NCBI GenBank assembly: GCA_045533915.1
Contig: JAZSIP010000081.1
Coordinates: 1-47,431 of the forward strand
Length of the DNA stretch: 47,431 bases
DNA from: Eubacteriales bacterium
GTDB lineage: Bacteria; Bacillota; Clostridia; Oscillospirales; CAG-272
Direction: 5' to 3'
A program made the translations under genes and the position numbers. Of this stretch, positions 25,242-29,859 are shown in pieces. How positions within the stretch are numbered: position 1 is the stretch's first letter; every line of letters starts with the position of its first letter. The notes below the pieces were generated by a model. The model did no database searches, was not told where the DNA came from, and saw only the letters and a program-made list of their open reading frames with translations.

Positions 25242-26675
25242 ATGAAACGTAAAGAAAATTATTCTTCTGAGGAAGCTCCCTTGTCAAAAGAAGAGCTCGA
25301 GATGCTGAAAAAAAGCGTTGACAGCTCTGAGGACAGAAGTAAGCTTCCGCCTCACGACACCTCCGAACGCGCAAATGTTATGCGTTTTGCAAAAAAGAAT
25401 CCCCTTCTCGTGATATCTGCCATTATCATAGCGCTTGCTATAATTGCGGTGAGTATACTTGGAATAGTTCTTGCAATAAAAAGATCCTCCGAAAAGCCGT
25501 GTACCGACGATTACACGATATATCTCGGAACAGATTTTTATACCGTAGACTATGACAAAGCCAATGTCAACGACGTGCTTTTCATTGATATAAAAAAAAT
25601 AGCTGAGTTCGCAGACTTTATCGTGAGCGGTTCAAAGGATAGAATAAAGTTCACATCAAGCACCGACAATTATCTCCGATTTGAAAACAACACCGAACTC
25701 GCCGTTATCAACGGCGCAAAGGTCGCTATGATCGCTCCCGCCATAGTAAATGAGAACGAGTGTCTCGTTCCCTTCAGCTTCGTGCAAAGAGTCATAGCGC
25801 AAGGTCTTAAGATACGTCTTGACAATACCACAAACACAATAAAAATAACCCGTCAGTTATACAACGACACTAAAGAACCCGCTGACATTCTCTTTACAAA
25901 CGACGGCTTCTCTGTAATTCAAGCCATCACACAGATAAAAAAGGAGGATATAGGATTGGATTCGTACAGTATTGATATTGCCCCTTATCTGCAGTATATT
26001 GATCCCGAAAACGCAAAAGACTTTCTTATTCTTGCCAATAAACAGAACGCTCTTGGCAAAAATTACGTTCCAAAGGATCTTGTCTCACTTCAAAACGATC
26101 TGAATATACCGTCAAAGAACAGCTCTCTCCAATTAAATAAGACCGCCGCATATGCTCTGCAAGCTATGATAAAAGCTATGGAAACCGACGGAGTCTCGGG
26201 TGCGTATATTGCCACCGAGGAAGCTGTAAAGCCTAACGATTCGCTGATCATTACAAGCGCGTACCGCTCATATGACTATCAAGAAAGCCTATTTAACGGA
26301 TATGTTTCGAATTATATGGACGAAAAAGGCGCATCAGAGGAAGAAGCCGTAAAGGAAGTATCGAAAACATCTTCTCGCGCAGGTGAGAGCGACCATCAAA
26401 CCGGGCTTTGCATTGACTTTATCACCGAGGGTATGAGCGGTAACCTTGACAATCGCTTTGAAGATACCGCCGCATTTGAATGGTTGAAGAAAAACGCTCA
26501 TCTGTACGGTTTTATTCTTCGTTATCCCGTAAATCCCAACGGAAGCTATGACGATCCGCATCCTATTACGCAATATAGCTACGAATCGTGGCACTATCGC
26601 TTTGTGGGACGCGAGGCGGCGGTCGAAATATACCGCTCCAATATGACGCTTGAGGAATACCTCGAGCTTAATTAA
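25242..26675 (+). CDS. membrane-anchored M15B (VanY/LdcB-like) carboxypeptidase with an N-terminal accessory domain
   Basis: One TM segment, then SAYRS, SDHQTGLCID (SxHxxGxxxD) and ESWHYRFVG (ExxH). Confidence 0.88.
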   Translation: MKRKENYSSEEAPLSKEELEMLKKSVDSSEDRSKLPPHDTSERANVMRFAKKNPLLVISAIIIALAIIAVSILGIVLAIKRSSEKPCTDDYTIYLGTDFYTVDYDKANVNDVLFIDIKKIAEFADFIVSGSKDRIKFTSSTDNYLRFENNTELAVINGAKVAMIAPAIVNENECLVPFSFVQRVIAQGLKIRLDNTTNTIKITRQLYNDTKEPADILFTNDGFSVIQAITQIKKEDIGLDSYSIDIAPYLQYIDPENAKDFLILANKQNALGKNYVPKDLVSLQNDLNIPSKNSSLQLNKTAAYALQAMIKAMETDGVSGAYIATEEAVKPNDSLIITSAYRSYDYQESLFNGYVSNYMDEKGASEEEAVKEVSKTSSRAGESDHQTGLCIDFITEGMSGNLDNRFEDTAAFEWLKKNAHLYGFILRYPVNPNGSYDDPHPITQYSYESWHYRFVGREAAVEIYRSNMTLEEYLELN

Positions 26676-26734
26676 GCTAAAGCTCCTCTAAAAAAGGATC
26701 TTTATAAATATTTTAAAAGAAAGGAGGAGAAAAA

Positions 26735-27409
26735 ATGACAGAGTTAAAAACAGAACAGCTTTACGATCTTGATCATACGATAGCAAAAGAGCTTCTTTCG
26801 AACTGCGAATATCCTTGGCTCGCTCTGCCGCGTATTAAGGAAACAGTACTTGCGCTCATTGAAACGCTTCCCGAAAGCGAATATTATGCGCCCGCGCCCG
26901 ATATCCGCATAGCGAAAAGCGCGAAGATCGCTCCAAGCGCGAATATTTTCGGACCTACGATAATAGGCGCTGATACAGAGGTTCGTCCTTGTGCGTATAT
27001 CAGAGGCTCGGTTATCGTGGGCGAGGGGTGCGTGGTCGGAAACTCCTGCGAATTAAAAAACGCTATACTTTTCGACAACGTTCAGGTTCCGCATTTCAAT
27101 TATATCGGCGATTCAATACTCGGCTACCGTTCTCATACGGGAGCAGGCGCTATTACGTCCAACGTAAAGAGCGATAAAACGCTCGTCAGCGTAAAAACAC
27201 CAGACGGCGCAATAGAAACAGGAATCAAGAAATTCGGAGCTATGATCGGAGATTTCGTAGAGGTTGGTTGCAACAGCGTACTTAATCCCGGTACTGTGAT
27301 AGGCAGAAACAGCAACGTTTATCCTCTCTCGTCAGTCCGCGGATACGTTCCCGCAAACAGCATCCACAAATCAACAAACAACATCGTACCCAAGAAAAAA
27401 CTCAATTAA
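26735..27409 (+). CDS. stand-alone GlmU-like left-handed beta-helix acetyltransferase
   Basis: Hexapeptide repeats, PHFNYIGDS, GAGAITSN and KFGAMIGD..VGCNSVL. No nucleotidyltransferase domain. Confidence 0.85.
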   Translation: MTELKTEQLYDLDHTIAKELLSNCEYPWLALPRIKETVLALIETLPESEYYAPAPDIRIAKSAKIAPSANIFGPTIIGADTEVRPCAYIRGSVIVGEGCVVGNSCELKNAILFDNVQVPHFNYIGDSILGYRSHTGAGAITSNVKSDKTLVSVKTPDGAIETGIKKFGAMIGDFVEVGCNSVLNPGTVIGRNSNVYPLSSVRGYVPANSIHKSTNNIVPKKKLN

Positions 27410-27427
27410 CAAGGAAGGAACACACAC

Positions 27428-28783
27428 ATGGGCAGACTTTTTGGAACAGACGGCGTTCGCGGTATCGCAAACACCGAGCTGACAGTTGAACTCGCCATGG
27501 ATATCGGCAGAGCAGCCGCAACGGTCCTCACCGACGGATGCCGCCACCGTCCGACGTTCATTATCGGATGCGATACGAGAGTATCCTCTGATATGCTTGC
27601 AAGCGCTATAACATCCGGACTTTGTTCGGTAGGCGCGGACGTTATTTGTCTCGGCGTTGTTCCCACTCCCGCAGTAGCATATCTTGTCGGAATCTATAAA
27701 GCCGATGCGGGAGTTATGATATCTGCATCGCATAACCCTGCAGAATTCAACGGCATCAAGATATTCGGCGGAAACGGATTCAAGCTTCCCGATATGCTTG
27801 AGGAAAAGATCGAGGATATAATCCTTGATAAGAATTATAAGCACACGCTTCCTACAGGCGACGGAATCGGACGACTCACATATGCAACCGATGCAGTAAA
27901 GGAATATATAAGACACATCAAAACAAGCGCGTACCACGATCTGAGCGGTCTTAATATCGCTATCGACTGTGCGAACGGCTCTGCATCCGCAACAGCACGT
28001 ACTCTTTTCGAAGAGCTTGGCGCTAATATACACGTTCTGAACGACAAACCCAATGGCATAAACATCAACAATAATTGCGGATCTACACATATGGAGATGC
28101 TTTCCGAATACGTTGTAGCCAATAAGCTTGACTGCGGAGTTGCTTTTGACGGAGACGCTGACAGGTGTCTTTGCGTAGACGAAAAAGGCGCGCTTGTAGA
28201 CGGCGATATGATCATGGCTATGTGCGCACTCGACTTAAAGGAGCGTGGAAAGCTCAACAAAAACACCGTTATCGGCACTGTAATGACAAACTTCGGTTTC
28301 CCGAAATTCTGCGAGGAAAACGACATTCGTTTTATCGCTACAAAGGTTGGCGACAGATACGTTCTTGAGGAAATGCTTATAGGTGACTACTCCTTTGGCG
28401 GCGAACAATCGGGACACGTAATATTCCGCGATTTCGCAACTACGGGTGACGGTCAGCTTACGGCAACTCAGCTTCTTTGCCTCCTGAAGCGTGCTCAAAA
28501 GCCGTTATCGGAGCTTGCGAGCGTTATGAAACGTTATCCGCAGACTATGATAAATATAACCGTCTCGGCGGAAGGAAAGCTTGCTTTCTATACCGATCCT
28601 CAGGTAAACGCGAAGATAAAAGAAGTCAAGCAAACCTTAGGCAACACAGGAAGAATTCTTGTTCGTCCTTCGGGCACAGAGCCTATGATACGCGTTATGG
28701 TCGAGGGCAGTGACGAAGAGCAGATCGCAATTCTTGCAAAGGAAGTTGCGGATATCATAAAAGAACGCCTTACTAAAAAATAA
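27428..28783 (+). CDS. glmM: phosphoglucosamine mutase
   Basis: FGTDGVRG, MISASHNP, DGDADR, GGEQSGH and RPSGTEP motifs. Confidence 0.96.
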   Translation: MGRLFGTDGVRGIANTELTVELAMDIGRAAATVLTDGCRHRPTFIIGCDTRVSSDMLASAITSGLCSVGADVICLGVVPTPAVAYLVGIYKADAGVMISASHNPAEFNGIKIFGGNGFKLPDMLEEKIEDIILDKNYKHTLPTGDGIGRLTYATDAVKEYIRHIKTSAYHDLSGLNIAIDCANGSASATARTLFEELGANIHVLNDKPNGININNNCGSTHMEMLSEYVVANKLDCGVAFDGDADRCLCVDEKGALVDGDMIMAMCALDLKERGKLNKNTVIGTVMTNFGFPKFCEENDIRFIATKVGDRYVLEEMLIGDYSFGGEQSGHVIFRDFATTGDGQLTATQLLCLLKRAQKPLSELASVMKRYPQTMINITVSAEGKLAFYTDPQVNAKIKEVKQTLGNTGRILVRPSGTEPMIRVMVEGSDEEQIAILAKEVADIIKERLTKK

Positions 28784-28794
28784 TCGTTTTTTAT

Positions 28795-28957
28795 AAACTA
28801 TAAGCGCCAGACCGCATGAAAAAGGGGACTTCCCTTTTGTTTCGCGTTGTTGACGAGGAATGGAGTTATCGAAAATTCGGCGGGAGCTCCATCGGCAGAG
28901 ATAACTGTCGCAGGATATGACAAATATGCAGGAGACTGCAAAACAAAGCAAATTCCA
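28795..28957 (+). ncRNA. glmS ribozyme (GlcN6P-activated), with no downstream glmS ORF
   Basis: AGCGCC cleavage motif at 28803, GUUGACGAGG, P2 AUGGAGU/GCUCCAU around UAUCGAAAAUUCGGCGG, P3 GGCAG/CUGUC, and P4.1 UGCAG-GAGA-CUGCA with a GNRA loop. Confidence 0.9.
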
Positions 28958-28977
28958 AAATGAATAGTTAAAAAATC

Positions 28978-29006
28978 AGGGTTGAGCCAAATGGCTCAAC
29001 CCTTTT
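28978..29006 (+). terminator. intrinsic terminator immediately after the glmS ribozyme
   Basis: AGGGTTGAGCCA-aa-TGGCTCAACCCT followed by TTT. Confidence 0.8.
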
Positions 29007-29103
29007 GCCTAATTTTGTGGATATTTTAACTATAATAAGTCGTAAAAAAATCGAATTTCGGACAGTTTTTTAGAAAAAATTATCATTTTTTCTTTATTTT
29101 TCT

Positions 29104-29859
29104 TTAATTTAAGGAATAAATATATTTTCTCCCGTCCTTTTTGCGTGTCAATATCTCCACCTCGCACAAAAATTTGAGTGCCTGTGAAAGCCGTCTTCCG
29201 CGAAGTCTCAATGCCTTCGCAAAAAATGCTGAATCAAAGTTCTCGGCATCTCGTATCTCCTGTGGCAAAACGGATCGTATATCCGCTATGTTTTTTATTT
29301 CCACAAGTCCTGTCATTCGGAGCGGAAAAAACTGCGAATCATACGCACCGCTCTTCCGTCCGCGCACTCGCTCGGAAAATCGGTATTCCTCCCCAATTAT
29401 CTGCGGCAAAAGAAATCTTACGCGATCAGAGGGAACAAGATGCTTAAGATAAAAAAGCTCTGGTATAATATCGCACGGTCTCTCGCGCTTTGGCGAACGT
29501 TTTTTACGTATAACCTCACCCGTTTCGCCGTCAACGCGTATGAGCAAAAGCTCAGATATGAGCGGGTGAACGACCGTTACGGTATACTCTGTATTTTCAA
29601 GAAAATACTCTATCTTTTTGACGAGCGGATAAAATCCGCCCGTCTGTATCTCAAATATCTCACCGTCACAAAGTACGTCGGCAACGTATGCGCCAACCTT
29701 GACCTCAAGGCACTCGGGATCTTTACACACAGCGTGCTTCAGCGCCTTATGAAGTATTTTTTCGTTATACGTACCTATACCGTCGGAATCCCTTTCTGAC
29801 ATCGTCTTTTCGAACTCACCGCAAAGCGAATCAAAACGCGAAAAAATATCTTGTGTCAT
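29104..29859 (-). CDS. hypothetical protein, possible PD-(D/E)XK-fold nuclease with a C-terminal winged-helix-like region
   Basis: E..LH..LK, YVADVL and IFEIQT spacing resembles a D...ExQ active site. The start overlaps the ABC gene stop. Confidence 0.55.
   Translation of the reverse strand: MTQDIFSRFDSLCGEFEKTMSERDSDGIGTYNEKILHKALKHAVCKDPECLEVKVGAYVADVLCDGEIFEIQTGGFYPLVKKIEYFLENTEYTVTVVHPLISELLLIRVDGETGEVIRKKRSPKRERPCDIIPELFYLKHLVPSDRVRFLLPQIIGEEYRFSERVRGRKSGAYDSQFFPLRMTGLVEIKNIADIRSVLPQEIRDAENFDSAFFAKALRLRGRRLSQALKFLCEVEILTRKKDGRKYIYSLN

Follow-up and report, generated by a model that had tools for sequence, protein, structure and literature searches.

The question raised by this locus is what a glmS ribozyme does behind glmM in a genome that has no glmS. 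The glmS ribozyme is the textbook ribozyme that doubles as a riboswitch. The copy in question was studied in a stretch of 47,431 bases (contig JAZSIP010000081.1, GenBank assembly GCA_045533915.1), hereafter called the window, which is one whole contig of the draft genome of an Eubacteriales bacterium (Oscillospirales, CAG-272). This genome (G000) comprises 1.89 Mb in 129 contigs and is 82.6% complete. Judged from sequence comparisons, the element is a genuine glmS ribozyme; it recurs in genomes lacking glmS and is maintained there by selection. The best-supported mechanism is a switch at the 3' end of the glmM operon, in which glucosamine-6-phosphate (GlcN6P) would trigger the cutting of an acetyltransferase-glmM mRNA from its terminator. 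A rough probability of 0.45 was assigned to this reading; a role as an autonomous RNA is a serious alternative.

The whole window was searched with Rfam cmscan, and the glmS ribozyme (RF00234) was the sole family above its gathering score. The match spans positions 28792-28966 on the plus strand and covers the model in full (positions 1-167 of 167); its score of 80.3 bits exceeds the gathering score of 37 (E 5.8e-17). The motif A^GCGCC is present and puts the predicted cut between A28803 and G28804, 20 nt past the stop codon of glmM (TAA, ending at 28783). Further core and cleavage-site motifs are retained, among them GACGAGG, CGGCGG and AAAACAA, and the helices P2, P2a, P3 and P4.1 are paired. 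The element is thus by every feature tested a full-length glmS ribozyme with predicted cleavage, and it is the only copy in G000. What sets it apart is its context, as it neither lies in the 5' untranslated region (UTR) of glmS nor controls that gene. A first-pass annotation, made from the letters of the window alone, had placed a glmS ribozyme with its core elements in the glmM 3' region, with this cut site 20 nt after the stop codon and with a terminator and then a convergent gene behind it. The Rfam scan and the sequence confirmed the ribozyme and its position, and every particular of the observation was correct.

The distribution of the layout was surveyed in 72 species-level genomes of the genus and in a wider sample of 151 genomes of the order. 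Within the genus, glmS was found over cut-off in 39 genomes and the ribozyme in 30, and in 26 of these the ribozyme is directly upstream of glmS on the same contig. Four genomes carry the ribozyme without glmS (G000, G015, G019 and G054), 13 have glmS without a ribozyme match, and 29 have neither; the idea that close relatives might all retain glmS at this place was not borne out by these counts. In total 33 of the 72 genomes lack glmS, nine of them being at least 90% complete. The 26 canonical genomes have the gene order DUF6062, rRNA methylase, VanY, acetyltransferase, glmM, ribozyme, glmS. To judge from this synteny, the ancestral order is an acetyltransferase resembling the C-terminal part of GlmU, glmM, ribozyme and glmS, and the window layout is that operon minus glmS.

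The distance from the glmM stop to the cut was measured in 25 genomes of the genus and in G205, a genome of another family. G023, G024 and G050 were left out, an acetyltransferase gene being located between glmM and the ribozyme, and G064 and G065 gave no distance. In 23 of the 26 genomes measured, the cut site follows the stop by 0-45 nt without a hairpin, so the ribozyme already had its place behind glmM when glmS was still present; in three canonical genomes a hairpin lies between. The shortest arrangement is that of G054, in which the cut coincides with the final base of the glmM stop codon, without any spacer. The scores of the four orphans in this genus lie between 74.5 and 83.5 bits (83.5, 81.2 and 74.5 for the sister orphans), within the range of the 26 glmS-linked copies (46.1-97). 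In ten genomes that lack glmS and carry this type of glmM, the gene is followed by a terminator alone.

A tree of GlmM (40 rows, single gene, IQ-TREE quick search, LG+G4) joined G000, G015 and G019 in one clade with 100% support in the Shimodaira-Hasegawa-like approximate likelihood ratio test. G054 was placed in another clade (98%) together with one canonical genome and two genomes having neither element, so at least two changes to the orphan state are required. The layout was also found in G205 (99% complete, 0% contamination), where the ribozyme begins 7 nt past the glmM stop and no glmS open reading frame (ORF) follows (L177 6344-6513, minus strand). No glmS over cut-off was detected anywhere in G205, and its congener G221 has the canonical layout. 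The region 3' of the G205 ribozyme consists of about 1 kb without ORFs, within which a promoter-like TTGACA-17-TATAAT is found, followed by genes for a DUF6756 and an ankyrin-repeat protein. G100 of the order sample also lacks glmS, and its ribozyme is located 154 nt from a contig end, where the layout cannot be judged.

Two glmS-bearing genomes showed altered ribozymes. In G007 (L071 1700-1810, in the orientation with glmM on the plus strand), glmS is kept and the ribozyme is mostly deleted, leaving about 106 nt from glmM to glmS; the remnant CTGCAAAACAGAACAA resembles the 3' part of P4. The glmS-linked copy of G065 (L059; C100 6401-6550, minus strand) reaches only 46.1 bits, and the AGCGCC motif is missing in its alignment. 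This ribozyme is possibly inactivated, with an intact glmS behind it.

The absence of glmS was examined at the level of whole genomes. No gene over cut-off was found in G000, the best TIGR01135 match being one of 22 bits on an ORF with a SIS domain, and the same negative result was obtained for G015 (83% complete), G019 (87%) and G054 (95%). The claim of the first-pass annotation that glmS is missing therefore stood, and at the ancestral glmS slot a terminator and a convergent gene are present. The completeness values of G000, G015 and G019 would leave room for a glmS gene that was not assembled and that this ribozyme, or a duplicate of it, serves elsewhere. This explanation is hardly credible. 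The terminator occupies the ancestral slot inside long contigs of three independent assemblies, each genome has one ribozyme, and glmS is also missing from G054 and G205; across the genus, nine genomes lack it at a completeness of 90% or more. An assembly break at the locus, named beforehand as a possible source of error, was not found, since the ribozyme lies in the middle of a 47,431-base contig and the identical glmM-ribozyme-terminator junction recurs in two other independent assemblies.

A cell that lacks GlmS has to obtain its GlcN6P through NagA or through NagB working in the synthetic direction. G000 carries nagA and two nagB genes; a full-length GlmU was not found in this 82.6% complete genome. 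Among the 33 glmS-less genomes of the genus, 28 have nagB, and the five without it are all at most 80% complete. All nine glmS-less genomes of at least 90% completeness have nagB, as do 26 of the 39 glmS-positive ones. A second GlmM equivalog (493.5 bits) is encoded directly upstream of one nagB of G000 (contig C113 24859-26984, L005 86-2211). It is 44% identical to the GlmM of the window, and the paralogue is present in many genomes of the genus. Its open frame comprises about 540-570 aa in several of them, which suggests an N-terminal extension or an upstream region in frame.

Whether the orphan ribozyme is merely left over was addressed by comparing G000, G015 and G019. Four-fold degenerate sites of four flanking genes (467-473 sites) are 58.5%, 56.0% and 65.5% identical in the three pairs, yet only 1, 3 and 4 of the 118 columns in the ribozyme core are different. 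The P2-P4 domain (28857-28956, plus strand) is nearly frozen; with 96 of 100 positions identical in all three species it is the top 100-nt window of the 5.1-kb synteny (median 79, 99th percentile 92). Among the three, divergence is seen in the spacers on the 5' and 3' sides of the ribozyme and at the apex of P1. At 42 columns that are invariant in the 26 glmS-linked copies, the four orphans deviate at 1, 1, 0 and 1 positions, compared with 0-5 for canonical copies in a leave-one-out count; the deviation in G000 is a G to A change in P4.1 that turns a G-U into an A-U pair. RNAalifold returned 30 pairs for five glmS-less copies (P2, P2a, P3 and P4.1), six of which were kept through changes on both sides, and P2 and P4.1 were preserved by such double changes between orphan lineages. 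The alignments thus indicate that the orphan ribozyme is under strong purifying selection in the clade of G000.

The junction and the terminator are common to G000, G015 and G019, so the deletion of glmS predates their split. A neutral relic of a recent deletion, in which decay has not yet set in, could be considered because ten other losses in the genus took the ribozyme too, and because G054 and G205 are one genome each, in which selection is not measurable. For the G000 clade this reading is contradicted by the alignments, as four-fold sites have diverged by 34-44% since the deletion and changes have accumulated in both flanks, at the P1 apex and in the spacers, against 1-4 of 118 core positions; overall it was regarded as very improbable. 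The first-pass annotation had proposed a relic after glmS loss, implying amino-sugar salvage. Its account of the origin was sustained, the layout having arisen from glmM-ribozyme-glmS by loss of glmS in a genome with nagA and two nagB genes, but the strong purifying selection means that the ribozyme is not a decaying relic. It had further described the base of P1 as imperfect and as a possible mark of decay. The description is fair for G000, in which P1 has a folding energy of -11.6 kcal/mol (z = -1.5). The suspected decay is not supported, as P1 folds better in G019 (-18.4 kcal/mol, z = -3.2) and G015 (-13.7 kcal/mol, z = -2.1), and the orphans deviate at no more than one of the 42 invariant columns. 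The variable part of this helix is an extended hairpin with an apical stem-loop (28809-28849, plus strand), which forms an insertion in the P1 loop of the Rfam alignment, folds, and has diverged in the three sister species. A ribozyme preserved without glmS must have another job in these genomes.

The degree of conservation was calibrated against glmS-linked ribozymes. At a four-fold divergence of glmM of 38.6-42.2%, the cores of glmS-linked pairs (n = 3) differ by 10.8%, 14.2% and 19.8%, and those of orphan pairs by 0.8% and 3.4%; the comparison comprises three orphan species with about two independent contrasts, and one canonical pair includes the degenerate copy of G065. Calibration by GlmM protein identity gave the same excess conservation. 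The stems and loops of P3 and P4 are frozen in the orphans, whereas they vary freely among canonical copies. A metagenome scan with GlmM returned 38 loci, the best of them 78% identical and none belonging to the G000 clade, so the selection test rests on three species.

The job of the ribozyme was then considered from its surroundings. Upstream of it are two genes on the plus strand. The first (26735-27409) encodes a hexapeptide-repeat protein of 224 aa that corresponds to the acetyltransferase half of GlmU only (Pfam Hexapep, Hexapep_GlmU). Its best NCBIfam matches are the C-terminal parts of Arch_glmU, alt_bact_glmU and glmU, all under cut-offs, and the gene is syntenic in relatives. The second (27428-28783, TAA at 28781-28783) is glmM, encoding a phosphoglucosamine mutase of 451 aa with four PGM/PMM Pfam domains and a match to the equivalog TIGR01455 (572 bits, cut-off 447.55). 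Downstream of the ribozyme, a hairpin at 28978-29003 has 11 pairs (7 G-C) and a 4-nt loop and folds at -21.1 kcal/mol (z = -5.4), with none of 200 shuffled sequences as stable. It is flanked by an A run and by a T run (29003-29006), which makes the unit at 28978-29006 a bidirectional intrinsic terminator; the terminator scan flags the minus strand. Compensatory changes preserve the stem in G019 and G015.

A consensus scan of the plus strand from 26887 to 29059 found no promoter-like site, though such scans are not proof. Since no promoter-like site follows glmM, no ORF lies downstream and a spacer is missing altogether in G054, the ribozyme is most simply read as the 3' UTR of the acetyltransferase-glmM mRNA. 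With only a terminator and a convergent gene behind it, the regulated target should be upstream in the same transcript or in trans. In the proposed switch, a working, GlcN6P-dependent ribozyme would have been left behind when glmS was deleted from the ancestral operon and would be transcribed as the 3' end of this mRNA. When GlcN6P is plentiful, it would cut between A28803 and G28804 and part the coding mRNA, then ending 20 nt past the glmM stop without a hairpin (in G054 at the stop codon), from the ribozyme and the terminator. A bacterial mRNA that lacks a 3' hairpin is as a rule quickly broken down by 3' exonucleases. The unprotected mRNA for two GlcN6P-consuming enzymes would thus decay faster from its 3' end, and less GlmM and acetyltransferase would be made at high GlcN6P. 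The flux from GlcN6P to UDP-N-acetylglucosamine would be lowered under these conditions, with reversible NagB setting the pool. To limit the anabolic branch at abundant precursor while NagB sets the pool is a coherent, if unproven, logic. That the operon encodes GlmM and a protein like the GlmU acetyltransferase supports the proposal. Precedents noted in PMC6765202 are reporters with a twister ribozyme behind the gene and the idea that polycistronic mRNAs are processed by ribozymes.

The same surroundings would fit a constitutive element, for which the response to GlcN6P is irrelevant and which processes or insulates the 3' end of the operon or separates convergent transcription. The ribozyme does adjoin a bidirectional terminator between convergent genes, and ribozymes have been suggested to process polycistronic mRNAs into parts of differing stability, as stated in the available portion of PMC6765202. 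On the other hand, a plain terminator suffices in the ten glmS-less relatives, and what the orphans retain are the invariant positions of glmS-linked ribozymes, a sign that selection acts on the complete ligand-dependent fold. A constitutive function was therefore rated as improbable.

Several points weigh against the GlcN6P-triggered switch. The sign of the regulation would be odd, as high GlcN6P would lower its own consuming enzymes. The upstream fragment would carry a 2',3'-cyclic phosphate end, and since such an end may hinder some 3' exonucleases, it is not certain that the fragment would be destabilised. The ten glmS-less relatives with a plain terminator after glmM indicate that cells can do without the element. 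When synonymous divergence is equal, the orphan core is 4-10 times more conserved than that of glmS-linked ribozymes, an excess that a purely cis-acting cutting role does not predict. Finally, in f20, a sister family of the same order, stand-alone units of promoter, ribozyme and terminator occur whose transcripts include no cistron on either side of the ribozyme, and such RNAs can thus persist without a cis-linked gene.

The f20 units were characterized in 49 genomes, 17 of which carry the ribozyme. A promoter of the form TTGAC[AT]-17-TATA[CT]T is located 51-60 nt upstream of the Rfam match in 17 of 17, and a glmS start within 420 nt downstream was found in none of them. A crude scan detected a terminator-like hairpin in 15 of the 17; G119 and G145 show one by eye. 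In the order sample, glmS is present in all seven f20 genomes, and in the five that bear the ribozyme it is on a contig other than that of the ribozyme. Examples of such units are L111 5340-5640 and L110 5030-5360 (minus strand), with further loci in L178-L194. Downstream neighbours include a convergent hydrolase gene (G090) and a separately started Na/Pi transporter gene (G119). As the f20 genomes show, a glmS ribozyme can persist even when there is nothing in cis for it to control. A conserved, single-stranded spacer containing CACACAA precedes the terminator in both genera of the family (L111, L112, L114, L178-L194); in genus g51 its sequence is AAUAUAACUUUCCACACAAAA, the same in three species. 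By its sequence this spacer looks like the seed of a small RNA (sRNA) or a protein site. Its pairing with the glmS leader of G119 is weak (-9.9 kcal/mol, no control). In G090, where the ribozyme is a separate gene, glmS (L115 571-971, minus strand) is preceded by a leader of roughly 270 nt. This leader contains a TTGACA-17-TATAAT promoter, several hairpins and a terminator-like hairpin that has a T run, and it may be an attenuator of unknown type.

These units bear on the possibility that the functional product is the ribozyme-terminator RNA itself (28804-29006, about 200 nt), an sRNA or protein-binding RNA that would act on other genes much as GlmZ/GlmY or sRNAs derived from riboswitches do. 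GlcN6P would set its release from the glmM mRNA and, through its 5'-OH end and RNase J, its later decay. In its favour, the orphan cores differ by 0.8-3.4% against 10.8-19.8% in canonical pairs, and P2-P4 are frozen beyond what catalysis needs there, which suggests an extra sequence-specific constraint. The f20 units, with their own promoter, no nearby glmS and a conserved CACACAA spacer, fit as well, and self-cleavage would free the same kind of RNA in both settings. The searches for a target count on the other side. The frozen domain of 116 nt had no complementarity above chance to G000 in blastn-short, the best match being 18 nt with one mismatch (E 0.6). The 203-nt RNA was also run unrestricted through RNAduplex against 3103 crude start regions, a scan that yields meaningless long duplexes (mean -28 kcal/mol) and in which the glmM paralogue has no row. 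The start regions of nagB and nagA ranked only 2297-2947 of 3103, and no amino-sugar gene was among the top scores of this crude method. Moreover, the spacer before the terminator is unconserved in the G000 clade and lacks the f20 motif, no own promoter was found by scan, and the hyper-conservation comes from three species only. According to Collins et al. 2007, a paper cited in PMC5473149, the 5'-OH cleavage product is reportedly expected to be short-lived, which counts against such an RNA too. As the clade of the window has neither the CACACAA motif nor the promoter, the f20 units and the window orphan are not the same phenomenon. A function of the released RNA in its own right was considered less likely than the switch on the glmM operon, of which it is the main rival. 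The first-pass annotation had put forward both a 3'-acting switch on the glmM mRNA and the release of a terminator-capped RNA, and these two proposals are the leading explanations. It is likewise only a tentative, minority view that several lineages of gut Clostridia keep ribozyme and terminator as an RNA of its own, namely a metabolite-sensing ribozyme-sRNA that acts in trans on genes or on a protein. The RNA might then be self-cut from the glmM mRNA in this genus and made from its own promoter in f20, with GlcN6P-controlled cleavage setting its abundance or its 5' end, a scheme that was held to be unlikely.

The remaining sequence around the ribozyme was inspected for other features. The spacer from stop to cut (28784-28803, plus strand) is 20 nt long and A/U-rich, has neither a hairpin nor a conserved promoter, and has diverged among G000, G019 and G015; a TATAAA at 28792-28797 of G000 was discarded as an own promoter, since by eye it is not conserved in the two sisters. 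The spacer from ribozyme to terminator (28967-28977, plus strand) is A-rich and not conserved in the alignment of the same three genomes. The tiny ORF ATG-AAT-AGT-TAA was rejected as coding because it is not conserved in G019 or G015. No frame on either strand is open across the ribozyme in all three sister genomes, the sense frames all being stopped, and an antisense ORF of 104 aa (28637-28951) is open in G000 only. The convergent gene (29104-29859, minus strand) encodes a protein of 251 aa without a Pfam family, with two ABC exporter genes behind it, and is also present in G015. In G019 (L033 6500-11300), about 5 kb lie between the terminator and the homologue of this gene, with minus-strand genes for proteins of 1249 and 199 aa. 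On the other side, a VanY-type peptidase gene precedes the acetyltransferase gene on the same strand. The stretch at 26656-26755, between and around the VanY stop (26675) and the acetyltransferase start (26735), is 91 of 100 identical in three species and ranks among the most conserved windows of the synteny; it may hold the leader of the operon or a ribosome-binding region.

Since the ribozyme is preserved by strong selection behind the glmM operon in genomes without glmS, and since this layout arose more than once, the locus offers a natural test case for 3'-end regulation of mRNA by a metabolite-dependent ribozyme, which has so far been mostly engineered. Together with the f20 units, the locus raises the question of a second, trans-acting life of this ribozyme class. 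It also bears on how gut Clostridia synthesize cell-wall amino sugars without GlmS. As glmS ribozymes are pursued as antibiotic targets, it is also of practical interest what happens when one is activated in a commensal that lacks glmS.

The closest known system is the canonical ribozyme in the 5' UTR of glmS in Bacillus subtilis and other Firmicutes. The window copy belongs to the same family, shares its cleavage site, core motifs and helices, and descends directly from a glmS-linked copy of the same genus. Unlike the canonical element it occurs without a glmS gene anywhere, has a terminator 11 nt after the ribozyme and has a slower-evolving core. The class is described as a regulator of glmS in the portions available of PMC5473149, PMC2258182 and PMC6765202. 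A full-text literature search found no report of an orphan, 3'-positioned or stand-alone natural glmS ribozyme; the census of McCown et al. 2011 may record exceptions.

Engineered ribozymes in 3' UTRs offer a second comparison. The same placement after the stop codon, with a cut that strips the protective 3' end, is found in twister constructs and in Plasmodium, where glmS-ribozyme cassettes in 3' UTRs are used for knock-down. Twister ribozymes have been placed in the 3' UTRs of reporters in bacteria, according to the part of PMC6765202 at hand. Such cassettes are artificial, whereas the window layout is natural, recurrent and under selection. An HDV-like (hepatitis delta virus-like) ribozyme upstream of glmM in Faecalibacterium prausnitzii has been proposed to contribute to metabolite-dependent regulation, as given in PMC6765202. 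It is likewise linked to glmM in gut Clostridia and differs in ribozyme class and in its upstream position. The primary paper on it is said to report that GlcN6P modulates that ribozyme.

Among sRNAs derived from riboswitches and 3' UTRs, SreA/SreB of Listeria, CpxQ and similar cases are known. In E. coli the GlmY/GlmZ circuit maintains GlcN6P homeostasis through sRNAs, as far as the accessible text of PMC4152352 describes it. With these systems the window RNA would share a terminator common with the parent transcript, or metabolite sensing away from its own gene. It differs from them in that crude scans found no target or seed, and in that self-cleavage would take the place of RNase E. The f20 units, lastly, share with it the ribozyme, the terminator and the lack of an ORF in cis. 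They have their own promoter, a CACACAA spacer and a glmS gene elsewhere in the genome (in at least seven genomes), whereas the window copy follows glmM and has neither a promoter nor glmS.

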